From positions 502,815 through 566,814 of the forward strand of contig CAVYRS010000001.1 in NCBI GenBank assembly GCA_963770995.1: 64,000 nucleotides of DNA, in the 5' to 3' direction. Shown one piece after another: positions 24,216 through 63,473 of this stretch. A model generated the notes under the pieces. That model was not told the DNA's origin. It did no database searches and saw nothing but the letters and a program-made list of their open reading frames with translations. The DNA is from an uncultured Acidobacteriota bacterium. Lineage in GTDB: Bacteria; Acidobacteriota; Vicinamibacteria; Vicinamibacterales; CAVVIG01. The stretch's first letter is position 1. Each line of letters starts with the position of its first letter. The position numbers and the translations under genes were made by a program.

Positions 24216-24283
24216 GAACTTAGAAGGGCTGCGACGCCGGCCTCGTTGTCCGTCTAACTTCTGAATTCTAACTTCTAACTTCC
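24214..24283. repeat. heptamer-array hairpin element (TAACTTC / GAAGTTA class) between convergent genes
   Basis: The right arm is TAACTTC-TGAATTC-TAACTTC-TAACTTC (24255-24282). The left arm AAGAACTTAGAAGG is shorter. The loop is GC-rich. Confidence 0.7.
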
Positions 24284-25620
24284 TACAGGAAGATCGCGCC
24301 GGCGACGACTCCCACGATCATCACGGCGACGGATAACAGCGCGACCATCCGGAATCGCTGTAGCGATCCGCCGAGCAGCATCATGCACGGCAGGCTGACC
24401 GCCGGCAGCACGACCAGCAGCGCCGCGGCCGGACCGTTGATGCCAGCCTGAATCAGCTCCAACGCCATCGGGATCTCAGACCAGGTGGAGATCATGAACA
24501 ACGTGCCGGCGATGGCCGACACCAGCACGCTGGGCAGGTTGTTGCCGAATGCCGATGGCAGCGTCTGAAACACCGCGGACGCAAGCACGCTCCACACCCA
24601 CAACGTCGGCACCAGGACCAGAGCGATGCGGCCGCTCGCGTACAGCCAGGATCCAATCAGCTGCGACGCCGTCTCGACCTTGCGGCCCGCCACGATCCGG
24701 TCAAAGTCCAGCAGCCCCAGGTAGAAGCGGCTGAAGGTCCGCCTAATGGTGGACCCCACGTACGGAGCTCGATTCACCTCGTACGTGGAGTCCGCAGCCT
24801 CCATAGCGTACGTGGGGTCCGGCTTTAGCCGGACCTTCACCCCCGCGTCCCATCGGTCGGCCACTCGAGAAATGAGATACGTGACCAGCACCGTGACGAC
24901 CACGCCGGCGACGACGCGCGTCACCGCGAACGGCACCGGCAGGAGCGCGAACGCCAGGACCAGCGTCGTGACGTTCAGCATGGGGGCGCCGACGACGAAC
25001 GAGAGCAGGAAGTTCGTGGAGGCACCGCGGCGGGCGAACGAGGGCGCCATCACCGACGAGCAGCAGGAGCAGAACGGCTGCGGCAGCGCAAACAGCGCGC
25101 CGAACAGCGAACCGGTGAAGCCGTCGCGGACGAAGTACGGCTTGAAGTACACGGGCAGGATTGTCAGCGCCAGCCCGGAAATCAGAATACCCAGCATCGT
25201 CGCGTGCCAGACGTTGAACAGGTAGCTGGTCGCCTGCGCGAACGGCCGCCACCATGCGGTCACGCCGAACGCGTGCAACCAGTCCATGTTGATGCGGCCG
25301 GACGCCATCGAGCGCGCCGCCGGCACGCCGCGATACGCGAACAGATCGATCACCAGCAGCGCCAGGATCGCAAACGTCAGCGGCTTGAGGTATCGCGCCG
25401 TGGGGGCGTCCTGCGCCTCGCGCATCCGCAGGCCGCGAAAGGACACGAGCATGCCGACGACGCCCGCCGCGAACAGTGGCACCTGCCACGGGTTGAACAC
25501 GTAGAACAGCGTGCGGACGGGATATGCGGCGAAGAGGAACCCGCGACGAAAATCGACGAGCGCCAGCAGGGCAACGCCCAGGCACACGACGAAGGCCATC
25601 GCCAACCGGCGGGCTGTCAC
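24283..25620 (-). CDS. permease of the UPF0718/DUF318 (ArsP-like) family, carrying an in-frame palindromic-element insertion
   Basis: 445 aa, polytopic. Signature: ALPQPFCSCCSSVMAPSFARRGAS. The central loop contains VRLKPDPTYAMEAADSTYEV, encoded by the repeat at 24782-24840. Confidence 0.85.
   Translation of the reverse strand: MTARRLAMAFVVCLGVALLALVDFRRGFLFAAYPVRTLFYVFNPWQVPLFAAGVVGMLVSFRGLRMREAQDAPTARYLKPLTFAILALLVIDLFAYRGVPAARSMASGRINMDWLHAFGVTAWWRPFAQATSYLFNVWHATMLGILISGLALTILPVYFKPYFVRDGFTGSLFGALFALPQPFCSCCSSVMAPSFARRGASTNFLLSFVVGAPMLNVTTLVLAFALLPVPFAVTRVVAGVVVTVLVTYLISRVADRWDAGVKVRLKPDPTYAMEAADSTYEVNRAPYVGSTIRRTFSRFYLGLLDFDRIVAGRKVETASQLIGSWLYASGRIALVLVPTLWVWSVLASAVFQTLPSAFGNNLPSVLVSAIAGTLFMISTWSEIPMALELIQAGINGPAAALLVVLPAVSLPCMMLLGGSLQRFRMVALLSVAVMIVGVVAGAIFL
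24782..24840. repeat. palindromic element (one intact copy plus one degenerate copy) in frame inside the permease ORF
   Basis: ACGTGGGGTCCGGCTTTAGCCGGACCTTCAC (24810-24840), preceded by the degenerate TACGTGGAGTCCGCAGCCTCCATAGCGT. Confidence 0.85.
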
Positions 25621-55531: not shown

Positions 55532-57574
55532 TTACGGAAACTTGGATCCGGGCATGCGGTAGGGTCGCCCCTCTTCATACATCTGCAATCGCTCCCGGAA
55601 GCGGGCCGCCACCTCGTGCGCCCCCGCCGCCGCCGCCGTGTCTACCCCAGCCCTGGCGGTTTTCACGGCTTCGGTGAAGCGTCCGGCAGCGGCATACGCC
55701 GCCGCCAGCGCGTCGAGCGATGCGACATCGCGTCCCTCGGTGACACTCACCGCCCGTTCTCCCAGCGAGATCGCTTCGGCGGCGTTGCGAAGGGCGGGAT
55801 CGGCAGCGGTCGCCCGGATCCAGGCCAGCCCGGCCAGCGCCGGCGCGAAATCGGGTGTCAGCGTCAGCGCGCTCCTGAGCACACCCATGGCCTCGGCCGT
55901 TCGTCCCTGCGCCGACAACAGAAGGCCGAGATTCGCGCGCGCCTGGACGTTGTCCGGACGCAAGGCGATGGCTCGGCGATAGTGCTCCAGAGCCGGCTCC
56001 GTGCGTCCGAGCATGTGAAGCACGGCCCCCAGATTGTTGTGCGCCTGCGCGTAGTCGGGGTCGATGCCGAGCGCGGCGTCGAATGCCAACACGGCTTGTT
56101 CGCGCAACCCGCGCACCGACAACGCGATTCCGAGGTTGTAGTGCGTCTGCGCGGAGCGCGGATCGAGCCTGAGCGACTCGCTGTATTCGGCAATCGCCTC
56201 GTCGTACTGCCCGCCCTCGAGGTACAGATTCGCGACCGCGTCGTGGCGCAGCGGATCGTCGGGCGCATTGCGCAGGAGTTTGGAGTACGCGGCGAGATCG
56301 TCGGCACGCGCCTTACTGCGAACGTCCGTAGCCAGGCGCTGATGATCTGCGCCGGTCCGCGCTGCCACCTGCAGCCACAGATCGCCCATTTCGTCGGTCG
56401 TGTTCTGCCCCCACACGACGCGCACCGGCGGCTGATGCGGATTGCGCACGTTCTCGGCGGAGTTGTCGTAGGTGTAGCGCATTGCAACCGTGGTCCCCTT
56501 GGGCAAGGCGATCGGCGACGCGAAGCGGTAGACGTCCTGCCACCGGAAATCCCAGTCGTCGATGGCGATGAGCGGCCGCGTGGACCCGTCGGGCAGGGTC
56601 GCGTTCGCCTCCATGCGGCGCGCCAGGTTGTGCGCGTGCGGCTGCACGGCCAGCACGTCGACGTCGACGGGCAGCGCGTACCGATCGGTGATGACGTGCG
56701 CGCGATCGCCGGCGGGAACGTCGATTGTCTCGCTGCCGAGACGAAGGCCGACCGGCGTGCGTGTAGGCGGCGCGTCCGTCAAGAACAGCCCGATAGTGGG
56801 CTGGACCGGCTCGGGCTTCCCGGTCGGTTGCAGGTGCAGCTGGACGACGAGGTCGCTTCCCGGATCGAGCCGCCATTGCATGCCGTCAGGCGACGCGTGC
56901 GGCGCCTGACCCGGGGTCCAGCCGAGGAGTTGCCCTTCCGGATAGCGCGCCTCGACCACCATGCTTCCCGTGTATCCCGGCTCGGCGTCGCGGCGATCGA
57001 GCTGGCGCGACGACTGTGTTCGATCGATCCCAAGGTTCGCGTGGTGCACGACCCGGGCGTTGCCCGGCTGGAACTCAATCGCGCGCACGTAGCGGGGCGA
57101 GGTGAGTGGAATCGGAATCACGAACGTGCGGAACACATCGGGTCCATCCGCGCGCACGGTATACGCCTCGGCCATGCGGACGACGAGGTCGGGCGTGCCG
57201 AGCTGCCAGCCATCGGCGAATCTCGGGGGCGGCGAGAGGTCGGAGTGATCGCCTTCGACGGCGCCGGCGGCAATCCAGCGCTGCAATGTGTCGAGCTCGG
57301 CATCTGAGAGTCGCCGTTCGTTTTGAAAGTTACCCTTTCCCGCCACGGGCTTCCACGGCGGCATCACACGCCGCGCGGTCACCGCCGCAATCTGCGTCAG
57401 CCGCCTCTTCACATCGTCATACGTGAGCAGGCTGAAGGGACCGATCTCGCCGGGGCGATGGCAGTTCGCGCAGCGGGACCAGATGATCGGTGCGATGTTT
57501 TTGGTGAACGTGAGGCGCGGTTGAGCCGACACAGAGGGGACGGAGAACACGGAGACAAACAGCCACAGAGACAC
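55532..57574 (-). CDS. haem-c/PHM-like copper monooxygenase-fold + C-terminal TPR protein (intact paralogue; start uncertain, GTG 57574 proposed)
   Basis: WSRCANCHRPGE (CxxCH), VVHHANLG, VVQLHLQP, QPHAHNLA, WDFRWQ, NTTDEMGDLWLQV, then about 7 TPR units. The hydrophobic signal segment SLWLFVSVFSVPSVSAQP is encoded by a repeat arm. The track ORF 5' extension to 57994 crosses repeats. Confidence 0.75.
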   Translation of the reverse strand: MSLWLFVSVFSVPSVSAQPRLTFTKNIAPIIWSRCANCHRPGEIGPFSLLTYDDVKRRLTQIAAVTARRVMPPWKPVAGKGNFQNERRLSDAELDTLQRWIAAGAVEGDHSDLSPPPRFADGWQLGTPDLVVRMAEAYTVRADGPDVFRTFVIPIPLTSPRYVRAIEFQPGNARVVHHANLGIDRTQSSRQLDRRDAEPGYTGSMVVEARYPEGQLLGWTPGQAPHASPDGMQWRLDPGSDLVVQLHLQPTGKPEPVQPTIGLFLTDAPPTRTPVGLRLGSETIDVPAGDRAHVITDRYALPVDVDVLAVQPHAHNLARRMEANATLPDGSTRPLIAIDDWDFRWQDVYRFASPIALPKGTTVAMRYTYDNSAENVRNPHQPPVRVVWGQNTTDEMGDLWLQVAARTGADHQRLATDVRSKARADDLAAYSKLLRNAPDDPLRHDAVANLYLEGGQYDEAIAEYSESLRLDPRSAQTHYNLGIALSVRGLREQAVLAFDAALGIDPDYAQAHNNLGAVLHMLGRTEPALEHYRRAIALRPDNVQARANLGLLLSAQGRTAEAMGVLRSALTLTPDFAPALAGLAWIRATAADPALRNAAEAISLGERAVSVTEGRDVASLDALAAAYAAAGRFTEAVKTARAGVDTAAAAGAHEVAARFRERLQMYEEGRPYRMPGSKFP

Positions 57575-57859
57575 GGAGACACAGAGGGGCGCGCCGCAGG
57601 AGATTCGGCGGGAGCGCCGCGATGCGGCGCACTGTGGCCGAACCGATCGGAAACGTGAACCTGGAACATCCGAGAGGTTCACGTTTCCGGTCGGTTCGAC
57701 CACAGCGCCCGGCCTGCTCCGCAGGCCGTCCCGCCGAACTGCGAGCGCGCCTCGCGTTCCGCGCCACCCGAACTCTCTTGTTTCCACGCTGTCTTCTCTG
57801 TGTCTCTGTGTCTCCGTGGCTGAATCACTCCGTGAGCTCTGCTTCCTCCGTGTCCTCCG
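57528..57859. repeat. nested composite inverted repeat in a divergent 5' region
   Basis: The outer arms are built of ACACAGAG/ACACGGAG units (57528-57589) and their inverse CTCTGTGT/CTCCGTG units (57775-57859). The inner 25-bp inverted repeat is CCGAACCGATCGGAAACGTGAACCT / AGGTTCACGTTTCCGGTCGGTTCGA (~57638-57700), with 1 mismatch. Confidence 0.8.
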
Positions 57860-57937
57860 CGCTGGTTTAGCATAGCGCTGTTGCCGCCCAAGAAAGTCGT
57901 TCGACCGCTCGCGCTGGAAACCCGCGTCGATCGCCCG

Positions 57938-60187
57938 ATGCTGCTGCCGGCGGTCGCGATCTTCGCGATCGCGTTCGGCATCCGGCTCGTGCACGTGTTG
58001 CAGATTCGATCCGCGCCGTTCTTCTCCGTCCTGATGGGCGACTCCCGCGGGTACGACGAGTGGGCACAGCGGATCGCGGCCGGCGACTGGTGGGGGACGG
58101 AGGTCTTCTATCAGGCGCCGCTGTATCCGTACTTCCTCGGCGTTCTGTACTCGGTCGCGGGCCGGTCGCTGCTGCTCGTGCGGCTCGTCCAGGCGGCGAT
58201 CGGGTCGGCGTCGTGCGTGCTGGTCGCCCTCGCCGCCGCGCGATTGATCTCGCGCCGCGCGGGCATTGCAGCCGGACTGATCCTGGCGTTGTACGCGCCC
58301 GCGATTTTCTTCGACGGTCTGCTGCAGAAGTCGGTGCTCGACGTGTTCTTCGTCAGCCTCGCGCTGTTATTGATCGCCCGGATCGAGACGGTCCGCCTAA
58401 AGGCGGACCCCACGTACGAGAAAAGGCCGGTAGGTGGGGTCCGGCTTCAGCCGGACCTACATTGGCTCTTGCTCGGCCTCGCGATCGGCGGGCTGAGCCT
58501 GACGCGCGAAAACGCGCTCGTCTTCGTCGTCGTTCTGCTCGCGTGGGCGCTGATGCGTTCATGGCCTTTGCGGTCTCCGCGGTCTTTGCGTTCACCTGCT
58601 GCGCTCCTCCTGGGCCTCGCGCTGGTTCTCGTTCCAGTCGCGACGCGCAACACGCTCGTCGGCGGCGGCTTCTTCATCACGACGTCGCAGTTCGGCCCCA
58701 ACTTCTACATCGGCAACAACTCGAAAGCAGACGGGACGTACGCCTCGCTGCGCTTCGGGCGAGGCGCGCCGGAATACGAACGGCAGGACGCCACCGAGCT
58801 CGCCGAGCTCTCGTTGGGGCACCGGCTCCCGCCTGGAGAGGTGTCGAGCTACTGGACCGATCGCGCGCTGCAGTACATCACCTCACAACCGGGCGCGTGG
58901 GCACGGCTGATGGCGAGGAAGGCCGCGCTGCTGGTAAACCGGGCGGAAATGGTGGACACCGAAGATCAGGCGACCCACGCCGAGTGGTCGCTGCCGCTCC
59001 GCCTGCTCGGGCCCGTGGCGCATTTCGGCGTGCTCGTTCCACTCGCGATGCTCGGCATCGTCGCGACGTGGCCCCAGCGATCGCGGCTCGGTGTCCTGCT
59101 CGCCCTGCTGGTCGTCTACGCCGCGAGCGTGGTGATGTTCTACGTCTTCGCGCGGTATCGATATCCGCTGGTGCCGATGCTGATCGTGTTTGCGGCCGTC
59201 GCGCTCGTCGAATCACCGCGATTCGCGCGATCGCTCACGAAGGGCTCTACCACGGAGGACACGGCCACAAACGGAGGACACAGAAAACCAAAGGATTCCG
59301 TGCCCGCCGTTCGCCACAGTGCCCTCCGTGGTGAAGCCGTGTGGACGGTCGTGGCGATTGTCGGGACCGCGGTCCTGACCAATTGGCCGCTGCTGTCGAC
59401 GAACAACATGCGCGCGGTCACCGAGAACAATCTCGCCGCCGCGTTGCAGGCCACCGGCCGCCTCGACGAGGCCGAAGCACACTATCGCCGCGCCGTCGAT
59501 TTTCGTCCCGACTACGCGCCCGCCTACAGCAACCTCGGAACCGTGCAGCGCGCGCGCGGGCGGCGCGCTGACTCCATCGCCTCGTACGAGCAGGCGCTGC
59601 GCCTGCAGCCTGATTATCCAGACGCGCACTACAACCTCGCCAACGCGCTCACGGACGACGGGCGATCCGCGGAGGCGATCCAGCACTTTCAGATCGCGTT
59701 GCGGTCCGTGCCCGGATCAGCCGAGGTGCACAACAACCTTGGCATCGCGCTCGCGTCGAGCGGGAAACGCGACGAGGCGATCGCGGAATTCGAAGCTGCC
59801 CTACGCGCCGATCCGGCGGCGGCGAAGGCGCATCGCAACCTCGGCGACGCGCTGCTGGCAGCCGGGCGCGGACCGGAAGCGCTGACCCACTTCAAACGCG
59901 CCACCGAACTGGCGCCAGACGAGGGCTCGTTCCACTACGACTACGGGAGCGTGCTGCTCGAGGCGGGACGTCCGCAGGACGCCGCGGCCGAATTCCGCGC
60001 CGCGCTGAAGTCGATGCCCCGCGCACCCGAGGTGCACAACAACCTGGGCATCGCGCTCGGATCGCTGGGGAAGCTGGACGAGGCGATCGAGCAGTTTCAG
60101 GAGGCGCTGAGCATCAAGCCGGACTTCGCTGATGCGCGCAGGAATTTGACAATGGCTGGCGAGGCACGAAAACGCAAAACACCCTAG
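57938..60187 (+). CDS. GT39/ArnT-like membrane glycosyltransferase fused to C-terminal TPR domain, with several repeat-derived in-frame segments
   Basis: ATG 57938. N-terminal polytopic part: FFSVLMGDSRGYDEWAQRIAAGDWWGTEVFYQAPLYPYFLGVLY. The C-terminus has about 7 TPR units (AHYRRAVDFRPDYAPAYSNLG...). In-frame repeat segments lie at 58389-58461, 58567-58593 and 59250-59331. Confidence 0.85.
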   Translation: MLLPAVAIFAIAFGIRLVHVLQIRSAPFFSVLMGDSRGYDEWAQRIAAGDWWGTEVFYQAPLYPYFLGVLYSVAGRSLLLVRLVQAAIGSASCVLVALAAARLISRRAGIAAGLILALYAPAIFFDGLLQKSVLDVFFVSLALLLIARIETVRLKADPTYEKRPVGGVRLQPDLHWLLLGLAIGGLSLTRENALVFVVVLLAWALMRSWPLRSPRSLRSPAALLLGLALVLVPVATRNTLVGGGFFITTSQFGPNFYIGNNSKADGTYASLRFGRGAPEYERQDATELAELSLGHRLPPGEVSSYWTDRALQYITSQPGAWARLMARKAALLVNRAEMVDTEDQATHAEWSLPLRLLGPVAHFGVLVPLAMLGIVATWPQRSRLGVLLALLVVYAASVVMFYVFARYRYPLVPMLIVFAAVALVESPRFARSLTKGSTTEDTATNGGHRKPKDSVPAVRHSALRGEAVWTVVAIVGTAVLTNWPLLSTNNMRAVTENNLAAALQATGRLDEAEAHYRRAVDFRPDYAPAYSNLGTVQRARGRRADSIASYEQALRLQPDYPDAHYNLANALTDDGRSAEAIQHFQIALRSVPGSAEVHNNLGIALASSGKRDEAIAEFEAALRADPAAAKAHRNLGDALLAAGRGPEALTHFKRATELAPDEGSFHYDYGSVLLEAGRPQDAAAEFRAALKSMPRAPEVHNNLGIALGSLGKLDEAIEQFQEALSIKPDFADARRNLTMAGEARKRKTP
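58389..58461. repeat. two palindromic-element copies in frame inside the glycosyltransferase ORF
   Basis: ACGGTCCGCCTAAAGGCGGACCCCACGTA (58389-58417) and TAGGTGGGGTCCGGCTTCAGCCGGACCTACA (58431-58461), translated TVRLKADPTYEKRPVGGVRLQPDLH. Confidence 0.9.
59250..59331. repeat. degenerate CACGGAGG-type hairpin element in frame in the linker between the GT39 and TPR domains
   Basis: CCACGGAGGACACGGCCACAAACGGAGGACACAG, loop, CCGTGCCCGCCGTTCGCCACAGTGCCCTCCGTGG. About 24 of 34 arm positions are complementary. Translated STTEDTATNGGHRKPKDSVPAVRHSALRGE. Confidence 0.75.
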
Positions 60188-60247
60188 AGTGCTTCACGAA
60201 CAAAGCACCCTAAGGTGCTGTTCGAGAAGAGCACTCTAGAGTGCTGG
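60184..60247. repeat. multi-hairpin element of alternating GTGCT / AGCAC blocks between convergent genes (candidate bidirectional terminator)
   Basis: CTAGAGTGCTTCACGAACAAAGCACCCTAAGGTGCTGTTCGAGAAGAGCACTCTAGAGTGCTGG. It contains the perfect palindrome AGCACTCTAGAGTGCT and two further GTGCT...AGCAC stems. Confidence 0.75.
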
Positions 60248-60255
60248 TCCAAGTC

Positions 60256-63207
60256 CTACCAGCGAACCCCCGTCCCGATCCCGATGATGCGCCCCTGCAC
60301 GATGCTGTTGGGGCGCAGGTAAGTCGCCGCCAGGACGTTGGTCGACACGTAGCTCACGACCGCATCCGAGTTGTTCAGGTTGAAGATCTCGAGCGTCGGG
60401 AGAATCGTCACGCGACCCGCTTTAAACGTCTTCGAGATCTTCAGGTCGAGCTGATTGATCCGCTCCGTGTACGTCGTGTCCTGATCGACGAGTTGCACGG
60501 TCAGCGTCGCCGGCTGGAACGTCGCCGGCAGGATGAACGCGCCGGCCGGGCAGGGCGCCGGGCAGTTGGCCGGATACCGCGTCGAGTTCCGCGTGATCGC
60601 CATGTTCATGCTGCTCGTGCTGCCCTGGACGTTCTGGAACGAGGCGCTGATGGTTACGCCGTAGGGCAGCGGATACGACCCCGCCAGCTTGAACTGCCTC
60701 CGGAATGGAAGCCCGTTCTCGCGGTCATCACAGAAACGCAGGGTGTTGGGATTGTCGGGCGCCGTGCAGGTGACGTCCTGCTGCCGCTCGAAGGTGAACC
60801 CGCCGAACAGATTCGAGCCGCGCCCCGGCCGCGCGCGGAACTCCATCGAGTACGCGTTGTAGATCCGCTTGCGGTCCGGATCGAATGTGTCGAGGTTCAA
60901 CGTGGGAGCCGCGGCCGCCGCAGCCGTCCGGCCGTACACCGTAATCGGCTCGCCGGTCAGCGGGTTGAACACGGCAAAGGGAGTGTAGTTCGGGTTCTGG
61001 ACCGGATCGCCGGTGGTCACCCAGCTCCGGTTGATGGTCGTCGTCAGGTTGTGGAAGCCGCCGTGGAACCAGCTGCCTGTTACGGAAAGCTGCGGCATCA
61101 CTTCATGCTGGAGCTCGAGGCCCTGCTCCACGTTCCAGGTCCGCGGATAGCCGCCGTACGTGTTCAGTGCCACGAACCCGAAATTCGACGGCAGCGCGCT
61201 GAAGTTGATCTCGCATCCAGGCAGGCCGTTCGTTCCGAAATTGCAGCCGCGGGTACCCTGCGCGATGTCGTCGCCGTTCACGTCGCGCCAGGCCAGAGCC
61301 GGCGACGTGGCCGTCGTGGCCCCGAGCGACCGGAGCCCGTTGTAATCCTCTGCGATACCGGTCGTCCGGGCGAGGTTGTATTTGTTGAGCGAGTACTTGA
61401 GCGCGGTCTTCGCGTTGCCGAACAGATCGTAGACAAGGCTCGAGCGAGGCGCCCAGTTCCGCCAGTTCGGCAGGTTTTCGATCCCCTCGAACCGCCGCTC
61501 GGGGACGAAACGGCCGGCCGCCGCGACGGCGGGGTCCACCTGCGCGTTGAGCGCCTCGTACCGGATCCCGGCGTTGATCGTCATCCGGTTCATCCGCCAC
61601 GAGTCCTGCGCGTAGATGCCGAGATCGTAGTTCAGACGTTCACCGTACGTGGAGAGCGGCGTGTTGCGTATGTAGACCGTATCAGGGACGGTGAAGGCCT
61701 TCCCCGTGCTGTTGCTTCGATACTGCTGCGTGAGATCGGCGTTCACGTCAACGGTGTGGTAGAACGTGCCCCACGTCCGCTGTACGCCTACCTTGAAGCT
61801 GTGCGATCCCGTGATGTAGGAGACCGACGCATTGACGGCGTACCGTATCGGACTTTGCGTGGTCTGCGTCGGCGCCGCGCCCTTGCGGCCGCCCAGGTCG
61901 AGCTCGACCCTCGGAGCGCCAGCGAACCACTCCGGCGTACCCCGCAAATGTCCGATCCCGGGCAGGTAGCTGTTCGTGTAGTTCTCGGTGTTGTTCGACC
62001 AGCCGGCTTCGAGCAGCAGGCGATTCGTGACTGGCGACTGCCACTTGGCCGACGCCGTGTGGTACGCCGGCGAGTACCAGACGGTTGCGGCCGTCTCGGG
62101 ATCGTACAGGGCCTGCATGTCGTGGCCGCGGAACTTGTCGACCTCGTCGAAGTAGGCCGAAAACTTGTTGCGGGGGCTGACCTGCCACGTCAGGCGGCCG
62201 TTGATGCTTTTGATGAACTGATCGTCGATGCCCTTGCTCCCGTCGTCGAAGAACGTGTCGGGAATGAAGTTGTTCACCGAGATGTAGCGGGCCGAGGTGA
62301 AGAACCACAACTTGTCCTTCTTGATAGGTCCGCCCTGCGCAAAGGTGTAGTCGACAATGCGATCCGTCGCGTTCCCGGTCGCCAGCCCCTTGTCCTTGTG
62401 CCGCTGCGTCAGGTTGTTGCCCTGCCACGTGCCGGGGCGATACGCCTGCTTGAAATCGCCGCTGAAGCGGTTGCCGCCTTCGCGGGGAATCATGTTCAGG
62501 CGCACGCCGCCTGCCTGGGTGTCCGCTCCGATACCGGAAGTCTGGTAGCTGACTTCCTGATTCATCGCGTCGTTGTAGTAGCTCTGGACCGCGCCGTCAG
62601 ACTGCAGACCGTTCACCATCATCCCGTCCACCAGGACCGTGGTGTTCGACGTCGTCATGCCGTGCGTCGACATGTAGGTCTGCTGCATCGCGCGCGCGCC
62701 GCCCGTATCGGGAAGGCTCAGACTGACTCCCACGATCAGCTGCCCGATCCCCTGGATGGTGCGCCCGGTCGGAATTGAATCGATCTGCTCGCGATTGAGC
62801 ACCTGCGTGTGGACAGCGGTCGTCACATCGACGATGGGCGATTGAGCGGAGACCGTCACCGACTCCTCGATCGCACCGACTTTCATGTCCGCGTTGATCG
62901 TGGCGGTGAATTCAGACGGCAGTACGACGTTCTCACGCCTGAAACTTTGGAACCCGACCAGCGTGAACGTCACCACGTAGGTGCCGGGCCGCAGGTCCAC
63001 GATCCGGTAAGCGCCCTGCCCATCGGTGATCACTTCGCGGCTCTTCTCGATGAGCACGTCGCTGGACGCTTCGACGCTCACGCCAGGCAGCACTGCTCCC
63101 GAGGTGTCCTTGGCGACGCCGACGATGGCGCTTTGGGCGTGCACGACGCCGGGCAACACCGCGAGCAGCAGCACCGCGAAGGGACATGCGAGTAGTCGTC
63201 TGCTCAT
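60256..63207 (-). CDS. TonB-dependent receptor-like outer-membrane barrel with CarboxypepD_reg domain (paralogue of 52295..55417)
   Basis: 983 aa. GVAKDTSGAVLPGVSVEASSDVLIEKSREVITDGQGAYRIVDLRPGTYVVTF. C-terminal ...GIGTGVRW. AGGAGGA upstream. Confidence 0.9.
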   Translation of the reverse strand: MSRRLLACPFAVLLLAVLPGVVHAQSAIVGVAKDTSGAVLPGVSVEASSDVLIEKSREVITDGQGAYRIVDLRPGTYVVTFTLVGFQSFRRENVVLPSEFTATINADMKVGAIEESVTVSAQSPIVDVTTAVHTQVLNREQIDSIPTGRTIQGIGQLIVGVSLSLPDTGGARAMQQTYMSTHGMTTSNTTVLVDGMMVNGLQSDGAVQSYYNDAMNQEVSYQTSGIGADTQAGGVRLNMIPREGGNRFSGDFKQAYRPGTWQGNNLTQRHKDKGLATGNATDRIVDYTFAQGGPIKKDKLWFFTSARYISVNNFIPDTFFDDGSKGIDDQFIKSINGRLTWQVSPRNKFSAYFDEVDKFRGHDMQALYDPETAATVWYSPAYHTASAKWQSPVTNRLLLEAGWSNNTENYTNSYLPGIGHLRGTPEWFAGAPRVELDLGGRKGAAPTQTTQSPIRYAVNASVSYITGSHSFKVGVQRTWGTFYHTVDVNADLTQQYRSNSTGKAFTVPDTVYIRNTPLSTYGERLNYDLGIYAQDSWRMNRMTINAGIRYEALNAQVDPAVAAAGRFVPERRFEGIENLPNWRNWAPRSSLVYDLFGNAKTALKYSLNKYNLARTTGIAEDYNGLRSLGATTATSPALAWRDVNGDDIAQGTRGCNFGTNGLPGCEINFSALPSNFGFVALNTYGGYPRTWNVEQGLELQHEVMPQLSVTGSWFHGGFHNLTTTINRSWVTTGDPVQNPNYTPFAVFNPLTGEPITVYGRTAAAAAAPTLNLDTFDPDRKRIYNAYSMEFRARPGRGSNLFGGFTFERQQDVTCTAPDNPNTLRFCDDRENGLPFRRQFKLAGSYPLPYGVTISASFQNVQGSTSSMNMAITRNSTRYPANCPAPCPAGAFILPATFQPATLTVQLVDQDTTYTERINQLDLKISKTFKAGRVTILPTLEIFNLNNSDAVVSYVSTNVLAATYLRPNSIVQGRIIGIGTGVRW

Positions 63208-63385: not shown

Positions 63386-63473
63386 CGTAGGTCCGCCTAA
63401 AGGCGGACCCCACGTATTGCGTTTCTGCGCGTTCGCGAAACGTACGTGGGGTCCGGCTTTAGCCGGACCTTCA
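63386..63473. repeat. pair of palindromic elements flanking a small CGTTTC...GAAACG hairpin; overlaps the stop codon of the PTE-like gene
   Basis: CGTAGGTCCGCCTAAAGGCGGACCCCACGTA (63386-63416), TTGCGTTTCTGCGCGTTCGCGAAACG, TACGTGGGGTCCGGCTTTAGCCGGACCTTCA (63443-63473). The TGA at 63473-63471 lies within the last copy. Confidence 0.85.

Follow-up and report, generated by a model that had tools for sequence, protein, structure and literature searches.

Three hairpin-repeat families in one open reading frame

A single open reading frame (ORF) on the plus strand of a 64,000-nucleotide stretch of acidobacterial DNA (the window, positions C1:502815-566814 of assembly G000, which is 9.3 Mb long, 66% GC and 84% complete) was found to contain, in frame, copies of three different hairpin-repeat families of its own genome. 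The ORF (57938-60187, from an ATG at 57938 to a TAG at 60187; 749 amino acids) was assigned by ORF, Pfam and PDB fold searches to a membrane glycosyltransferase of the GT-C fold (PMT_2-like) with seven TPR repeats at its C terminus. The explanation that we favor, with a probability of roughly 0.85, is that the three segments are selfish hairpin repeats surviving in permissive cytoplasmic loops, where the frame is kept and the added residues, mostly basic or polar, are harmless.

The repeat families were searched for by a mismatch scan of the genome, with the reversed genome as the control. Segment i was identified by inverted-repeat and family searches as an inverted doublet of repetitive extragenic palindromes (REPs) of a family designated A. 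Its left unit (GGTCCGCCTAAAGGCGGACCCCACGTAC, 58390-58417, plus strand) is read V-R-L-K-A-D-P-T-Y and has AGAC in place of the GTAG head, whereas the right unit (GTAGGTGGGGTCCGGCTTCAGCCGGACCTACA, 58430-58461, plus strand), also recognized by folding, is read G-G-V-R-L-Q-P-D-L-H and has its GTAG head on the minus strand at 58457-58460. The two units are separated by a 12-nt spacer (58418-58429, plus strand), read E-K-R-P and defined by orthologue comparison, whose length and sequence differ among orthologues. The arms (28 nt) are 86% complementary, and the segment, taken together with several adjoining bases (58386-58464), forms a single predicted hairpin (-45.7 kcal/mol, z -5.4). The 32-nt consensus of family A, GTACGTGGGGTCCGGCTTTAGCCGGACCTACA, is a GC-rich imperfect palindrome that on the other strand starts with TGTAGGTCCGGC, i.e. 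has GTAG at one end, and its stem variants GGC/GCC and GCC/GGC are compensatory. Genome-wide, 474 units matched a 24-nt pattern with up to four mismatches, compared with 0 in the control, and strict matches to the core numbered 357-378; in the window, the core GGTCCGSC-NNNN-GSCGGACC was counted 12 times, compared with an expectation of 0.01. Neighboring family-A units less than 150 nt apart form 161 inverted and 11 direct pairs; the copy in the ORF is an inverted pair, and intergenic doublets of the same layout are present at 63390-63469. Segment i therefore has the properties of GTAG-tagged REPs, namely a short high-copy palindrome, a GTAG end and inverted pairing.

Segment ii (58566-58594, plus strand) is the 3' arm only of an element of a second family (family B), consisting of three 9-nt units and TC/A, with one mismatch to the arm consensus of the family. 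The units CTTTGCGGT-CTCCGCGGT-CTTTGCGTT lie at 58566-58592, and L-R-S-P-R-S-L-R-S is read from 58568. Family B is a hairpin of about 71 nt (AAGAACGCAAAG..CGCAAAG..loop..CTTTGCGGTCTTCGCGGTCTTTGCGTTC) with arms of three 9-nt units each (AAGAACGCAAAG-NCCGCAAAG-..loop..-CTTTGCGGT-CTTCGCGGT-CTTTGCGTTC), and 91 arms and 28 complete hairpins were found genome-wide, with 0 control hits. A first interpretation made from the letters of the window (the sequence-only reading) had described this segment as a 3 x 9-nt tandem repeat. The sequence is real, but its phase was one base off, and the arm match to family B makes it a half-element rather than a free-standing tandem repeat. Since Tandem Repeats Finder gave segment ii no score, its significance stems solely from the family match; alone it has no hairpin potential (-14.5 kcal/mol, z -1.0). 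The direct repeat that had been noted around it was confirmed, with TGCGTTCA at 58554-58561 (plus strand, read from the sequence) and again at 58587-58594, where it forms the end of the family-B arm. An orthologue lacking this insert has ACGCGATCA in place of the upstream copy, and, judging from the letters, the pair may be a target duplication, microhomology or part of the arm.

Segment iii (59240-59338, plus strand), recognized by its inverted repeat, family copies and folding, is a complete but degenerate CACGGAGG-type hairpin of a third family (family C), 99 nt or exactly 33 codons long, and its translation is K-G-S-T-T-E-D-T-A-T-N-G-G-H-R-K-P-K-D-S-V-P-A-V-R-H-S-A-L-R-G-E-A. Family C is a hairpin of about 100 nt (GGCWCTACCACGGAGGACACGGACACAAACGGAGGACACGG..loop..inverse, with CCACGGAGGACACGGACACAAACGGAGGACACGG arms) with about 50 arms genome-wide and 0 control hits. 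The arms in segment iii are 43 nt long and 74% complementary, and the 102 nt at 59240-59341 fold with -50.1 kcal/mol (z -5.4). Genomic copies of families B and C have long inverted arms, and no consistent target-site duplication could be defined for them. No Rfam match was found in 57400-60400. Tryptic peptides predicted to cover the inserts are LKADPTYEK, SPRSLR and GSTTEDTATNGGHR.

As the sequence-only reading had proposed, the ORF thus carries three repeat-derived in-frame segments; each proved to be a copy of a hairpin family of its own genome, and all three are in frame and open, with neither a stop nor a frameshift. That the segments are merely repeat-like by chance, or that the ORF is misassembled or decaying, could be argued from the shortness of segment ii, too short alone for a Tandem Repeats Finder score, and from the incompleteness of the assembly. 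However, the three family patterns gave no hit in the reversed genome, the ORF retains every residue that is invariant in an alignment of 83 sequences, and independent metagenome orthologues contain in-frame elements of the same types, so that this explanation has a negligible probability.

The gene was also considered as the source of the repeats and was rejected in this role: intergenic copies outnumber it by hundreds, and there are orthologues without the segments.

The host protein and the location of the segments

The Pfam match of the host to PMT_2 is marginal (residues 59-149, 28.6 bits compared with a cut-off of 26.1), while seven strong TPR stretches begin at about residue 490. No match to PMT (PF02366) was listed in the Pfam scan of the ORF protein, and the NCBIfam scan gave only weak STT3 and Agl23 matches, far under their cut-offs. 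An AlphaFold model was built from 83 homologues, with a mean predicted local distance difference test score (pLDDT) of 85.6 and a predicted template modeling score of 0.82. When the full-length model was compared with the PDB, only TPR proteins were found; the GT-C fold became visible with the N-terminal domain alone. Residues 1-485, modeled apart, matched exclusively GT-C enzymes (AglB, STT3, PglB, Pmt1/2/4, AftA, ALG12 and DPY19; probability 1.0, TM-scores 0.36-0.48). A phmmer search of the N-terminal domain against the PDB sequences gave nothing meaningful. Pfam, the AlphaFold model and the N-domain fold matches together identify the host as a GT-C fold enzyme with a C-terminal TPR domain. 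In the earlier label, GT39-TPR, the membrane glycosyltransferase and TPR parts were thus borne out, but GT39 itself was supported by no test run. With the membrane domain as query, more than 4000 proteins were retrieved, almost all of which share the GT-C and TPR architecture, and from these sequence relatives the gene appears to encode a widespread acidobacterial enzyme.

In the AlphaFold model, helices 131-152 and 171-189 flank segment i (residues 151-175), segment ii (residues 211-219) falls on the loop 208-213 and the beginning of helix 214-240, and the final pair of membrane helices, 411-434 and 467-481, flanks segment iii (residues 437-466). For inserts 1 and 3, the pLDDT is about 55-60 amid confident helices. 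The model thus agrees with the earlier placing of the repeat segments in loops, with segments i and iii in predicted low-confidence loops and segment ii at a loop/helix start, positions at which the inserts would not disturb the fold.

The number and orientation of the membrane helices were derived by helix counting, with the first loop, which contains the YDEW motif, and a 120-residue loop (241-362) placed outside, and by the positive-inside rule. These suggest 11 transmembrane helices with the N terminus inside and with the TPR domain and the conserved motifs in the periplasm, and from this topology five cytoplasmic loops follow, at residues 103-108, 151-175, 205-217, 376-384 and 435-466. 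The internal indel-rich regions of the 83-sequence alignment (residues 104-108, 151-174, 210-215, 377 and 431-466) all map to these five predicted loops and nowhere else; the first loop, the periplasmic domain and the TPR repeats are free of them in the same alignment.

Segment iii had been placed exactly at the junction of the membrane and TPR domains, and it was suggested that such an element might mark the seam of the domain fusion. The first of these claims did not hold: the first TPR helix begins at residue 488, about 20 residues past segment iii, so that the segment is one transmembrane helix (467-481) away from the TPR domain. Apart from the nearness of the segment to the boundary of both domains, the evidence speaks against its having supplied or mediated the junction. 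The intervening transmembrane helix is conserved and is followed by an invariant NWP motif before the first TPR helix, the fused architecture is shared by thousands of homologues, and among 85 homologues classified at this position 38 have an insert-free baseline of 46-56 residues, and some others hold unrelated repeats. A role of segment iii in the fusion is therefore so improbable that it can be set aside.

Gain, loss and replacement of repeats among homologues

In alignments of the homologues, the flanks were highly conserved, with many invariant residues, and three hypervariable loops were located exactly at the three segments (sites 1, 2 and 3). Across the 85 homologues, whose inserts were classified by regex-based motif classes, the three loops contain at least six repeat-derived peptide types or are empty; empty sites numbered 8 at site 1, 25 at site 2 and 38 at site 3. 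A FastTree phylogeny of these homologues, calculated after removal of the variable sites, requires a minimum of 15 state changes at site 1, 21 at site 2 and 19 at site 3. P0098 is empty at sites 1 and 3 and is of baseline length at site 2; further examples of empty sites are P0003 for site 2 and P0005 for site 3.

At site 1, the baseline between the anchors is 26 residues (P0098), and 73 of the 85 homologues were classed as type A or D. A sister of family B (TAEHAEHAEK...SLRSLRSLR) is present in most homologues; in some there are family-A peptides (TVRLKPD...GVRLQPD), as a single unit, a pair or as many as six, and others have composites with a further repeat nested inside, such as P0008 and P0090, in which another repeat is present within both REP loops. 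A codon alignment of P0001, P0003 and P0013 showed that the REP doublet is also present in P0003, where the spacer differs and the stem has a compensatory variant, and that P0013 has a single REP unit at the doublet site. Two metagenome orthologues with 95.7% DNA identity, P0105 and P0084 (L035 and L036), differ by an in-frame replacement at site 1, in which, in P0105 relative to P0084, 50 nt in the center of a hairpin-array element have been replaced by 77 nt of another widespread repeat (FDKRTMSARPEPVEGR) and the frame has been kept.

At site 2, where the baseline is 31 residues, a full in-frame family-B hairpin (ENAKAAKHAK..LRSSRSLRS) was found in P0005, P0006, P0013 and P0014 and half of such a hairpin in P0001, P0002 and P0010, while other homologues have ERRTPNVERL, GLGARGWGL or PNPKSQIPNP types, and the site is empty in the close relatives P0003, P0004, P0007 and P0017. 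Site 3, with the baseline of 46-56 residues mentioned above, contains family C (TTEDTxxNGGH...LRG), VARGFSPAIAGLKACAT, RPEPVEGR, GRVLSDPA..TRP, family A or nothing, and family C is present in the same frame at this site in P0009, P0012, P0015, P0028, P0037, P0058 and P0089.

The distribution of the inserts among relatives also suggests an order of events. The family-C insert is probably the oldest, because it is degenerate and occurs in part also in P0002 and in the P0009/P0012 clade. P0002 has the family-B half-element as well, and sister orthologues have this element at full length. The REP doublet is found again in the nearest sister clade, whereas P0002 carries a different element at site 1.

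The alignments therefore showed the segments to be lineage-specific, since all three are non-conserved, absent or replaced among orthologues. The sequence-only reading would have been contradicted by conservation of the segments in genomes free of the repeats. No such conservation was seen: an orthologue from the same genus (L002) has none of the three inserts, and its genome has 0 strict family-A REPs compared with 357 here, and the repeat origin therefore stands. High copy numbers of families A and C were seen in just two members of the genus, this genome and G002 (55% complete), and in G002 no orthologue was detectable. The segments also show the marks of Rickettsia palindromic element (RPE)-like insertions, being dispersed-repeat copies in a conserved ORF, of a length that is a multiple of three and stop-free, with orthologues that are empty and have conserved flanks.

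It is possible that the inserts have acquired a use, either as basic linkers that reinforce the membrane topology or as mRNA hairpins that pause ribosomes or modulate expression. Consistent with such a function, segments 1 and 3 keep very stable predicted hairpins, the peptides are rich in Arg and Lys, as would fit cytoplasmic loops, and site 1 is occupied in most homologues. However, the empty sites are many, turnover is rapid, and the families that alternate at one site share no sequence relationship; segment 2 forms no hairpin, segment 3 has decayed to 74% arm complementarity, and the same elements are found in about 35 unrelated genes. We consider a domesticated function improbable. As regards the suggestion of the sequence-only reading that the elements contribute usable linker sequence, the fast gain, loss and replacement at the same sites argue for tolerance of the inserts and not for a need of them.

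Frame integrity and repeats in other genes

That the inserts leave the frame intact is not surprising. Of 82 REP doublets, 35 had a length divisible by three, and about 28% of the orientation/phase combinations read through a doublet without a stop, so that about 0.10 of randomly placed doublets would keep the frame and stay open. The corresponding value for family-B hairpins is 0.23, and 96% of the frames through single family-B arms and 88% of those through family-C arms are open. The low stop content of the elements, these frequencies and some 35 other genes with in-frame REPs support the earlier suggestion that insertions are filtered by frame.

Genes were called genome-wide by a home-made codon-usage caller (6677 genes), and repeats were counted as intragenic when a coding signal was present on both flanks. 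By this definition, 53 of 474 family-A units (11%) are inside genes, in about 35 genes. Five of the six reading frames are used by the intragenic REPs, and recurrent peptides are VRLKPDPTY, YVGSGFSRT, GVRLQPDL and GPAKAGPH. In the ten hosts that were scanned with Pfam, the REPs were located in linkers, between domains or in central loops wherever domains were recognized. Confirmed hosts include an E1 dehydrogenase (L027, residues 478-516), a CDC48-like AAA ATPase (L028, residues 411-430), an MFS transporter (central loop), a PD40-amidohydrolase, an S9 peptidase and two further PMT_2 proteins; L030 (residues 247-271) was another host among the genome-wide examples. One Pfam-confirmed host lies in the window, an ArsP_1-type permease gene (24283-25617, minus strand) with an in-frame family-A doublet at 24736-24835 (KVRLKPDPTY...YVGSTIRRT, residues 261-294) inside the Pfam-matched span.

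Were hosts independent, the expected number of genes with all three families would be only 5e-6. This expectation is one of several observations that would fit a targeted turnover, in which a hairpin already resident in the DNA would draw in the next element, or serve as its template, through Y1-type transposition or repair. Others are the different families found at the same few codons in orthologues, the composite inserts in P0008 and P0090, and the hairpin-array center swapped between P0105 and P0084. Against targeting, family-A REPs were not clustered with the other hairpin families in the non-coding DNA of this genome: only two of 469 marks had a family-A REP within 120 nt, compared with a null mean of 10.2. 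Moreover, the three families in the ORF occupy three separate loops and are un-nested, and the variable sites are all predicted cytoplasmic loops, just as the Pfam-annotated hosts carry REPs in linkers or central loops, a pattern that tolerance alone predicts. Because of this lack of mutual attraction, the excess of three families in one gene is better explained by five dispensable loops and by repeats having been present for a long time. As orthologues contain nested and swapped inserts, targeting may still play a part, and it is compatible with, and not exclusive of, survival of selfish repeats in permissive loops; as the main cause it is unlikely, although it carries more weight than any other alternative considered here.

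Somewhat more speculative is a combined possibility, in which the five loops would be recurrent landing pads for hairpin-directed replacement, with the hairpins or basic peptides exploited for pausing or topology. The mRNA hairpins and basic peptides would then be placed right after pairs of transmembrane helices. This reading appears doubtful to us.

Transposase genes and repeats around the ORF

Two matches to Y1_Tnp (PF01797) were found in the genome (L022, C1:3321661-3322008, and L021, C1:4570253-4570591). The former gene is located between inverted arrays of GGGGACGGAGGT units, of which there are 161 copies genome-wide, with 4-5 GGGGACGGAGGTTCG units in each array, and the latter between GGGGTCTGACCCC palindromes, of which there are 107 copies. 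The two genes, which are IS200/RAYT-like, are candidate autonomous partners of these other hairpin families. Neither is flanked by family B or C, and no transposase could be linked to these two families. The mechanism of mobility is probably transposition by Y1/RAYT-type transposases.

Further repeats were observed at both ends of the host gene. A 26-nt tandem palindrome array of the AGCACCCTAGAGTGCT type (60175-60246, strand not assigned; Tandem Repeats Finder period 26, 2.8 copies) provides, with its first unit, the final codons and the TAG stop of the ORF, so that a fourth repeat family touches it. This array family has about 10 genomic loci with 20-25 units and 0 control hits. On the promoter side, positions 57780-57860 contain degenerate CACGGAG/CTCCGTG-type units related to family C, such as CGGAGGACACGG and its own inverse at 57848-57859, and the gene is thus both bordered and interrupted by hairpin repeats. 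One contig of a relative (G022, C39:17495-36503) has at least three tandem GT-C/TPR paralogues in 20 kb, compared with one full-length copy in G000.

Proposed survival of repeats in permissive loops

The observations described above are best accounted for by the following course of events. The genome is full of non-autonomous hairpin repeats, some of them GTAG-type REPs mostly in inverted, REPIN-like doublets and others hairpin-array elements with arms of tandem 7-10-nt units. Copies landing in genes would normally be lost, and a copy would survive only if its length were a multiple of three, if it were read in a stop-free frame, and if it fell at a position where mostly basic or polar additions are harmless. 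Stop-free reading would be common, because the elements are GC-rich and stop-poor. The short cytoplasmic loops of the GT-C domain presumably serve merely as connectors, and three survivors in three of these predicted loops would be translated as 25, 9 and about 30 additional residues. The inserts would then be neutral to the enzyme.

Several points weigh against this explanation or limit it. Translation of the inserts is indicated indirectly: the frame was kept through all inserts observed in about 120 homologues, which supports translation because skipped inserts would not need a frame. The homologue sets are themselves biased to intact ORFs, since databases of predicted proteins under-represent frameshifted copies, and the gene calls behind the genome census are crude. 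The gene family seems to be far more permissive, or more targeted, than the average gene, and that selection alone is the cause is an assumption. No Y1 transposase with family-A REP flanks was found, the two Y1_Tnp genes being the only matches in a genome that is 84% complete. Finally, the cytoplasmic side of the loops is suggested by helix counting, by the positive-inside rule and by analogy with PMT-type GT-C enzymes.

Comparison with known systems

Palindromic repeats in frame inside genes were described in Rickettsia as RPE-1 and other RPEs (Ogata et al. 2000), as recounted in PMC3733652. Like these RPEs, the segments described here are mobile short palindromes that are in frame and stop-free in conserved genes, absent from orthologues, and presumed to be translated and tolerated. 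They differ from RPEs in that they belong to other, GC-rich families and are found in a large genome of a free-living soil bacterium instead of a reduced intracellular one, in that three unrelated families are present in one ORF, and in that, over hundreds of orthologues, many families have come to occupy the same loops.

Intragenic GTAG/CGTC REPs are known from several bacteria, where they are mostly dimers encoding 20-30 amino acids, sometimes with two inserts per ORF (Di Nocera, De Gregorio and Rocco 2013, PMC3733652), and REP doublets have been described as mobile REPINs (Bertels and Rainey 2011, PMC3116915). Family A resembles the GTAG REPs and the REPIN-RAYT system in being a 32-nt GC-rich imperfect palindrome that starts with GTAG and is present in hundreds of copies, mostly as inverted doublets; in contrast to that system, no cognate RAYT with family-A flanks was found here, and about 11% of the units are intragenic. 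Acidobacterial REP families are not cataloged in the GTAG/CGTC survey, in which, from this group, only the TIRYT genes of Koribacter versatilis are named (PMC3733652). Families B and C are similar to TIRYT-associated elements and to miniature inverted-repeat transposable elements in being 70-100-nt hairpins with long inverted arms, and the GGGGACGGAGGT-flanked Y1_Tnp gene looks like an autonomous relative of such elements, but the arms here consist of tandem 7-10-nt units instead of unique terminal inverted repeats. No description of hairpin-array families was found in the literature searched.

The host itself is similar to PMT/TMTC-type GT-C enzymes with TPR repeats in its GT-C fold, in the conserved YDEW motif of the first loop (D40 is invariant), and in a topology that would comprise eleven helices, with the N terminus inside and the TPR domain across the membrane; it differs from them in that its PMT_2 match exceeds the cut-off only narrowly. 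One enzyme family with thousands of orthologues, in which the same five loops gain, lose and swap repeats that are apparently translated, constitutes a natural experiment that may be used for mapping the positions at which a GT-C membrane enzyme is permissive, for measuring the turnover rates of intragenic repeats, and for testing repeats as makers of new protein sequence. For annotation, VRLKPDPTY, YVGSGFSRT, TTEDTxxNGGH and LRSLRSLRS in acidobacterial proteins should be regarded as repeat-derived and not as family signatures.

In conclusion, the case clearly fits a known kind, that of RPEs and of intragenic GTAG REPs, to which it adds a new taxon (Acidobacteria), the hairpin-array families, the presence of three families in one ORF, and a dense record of turnover at five loops.

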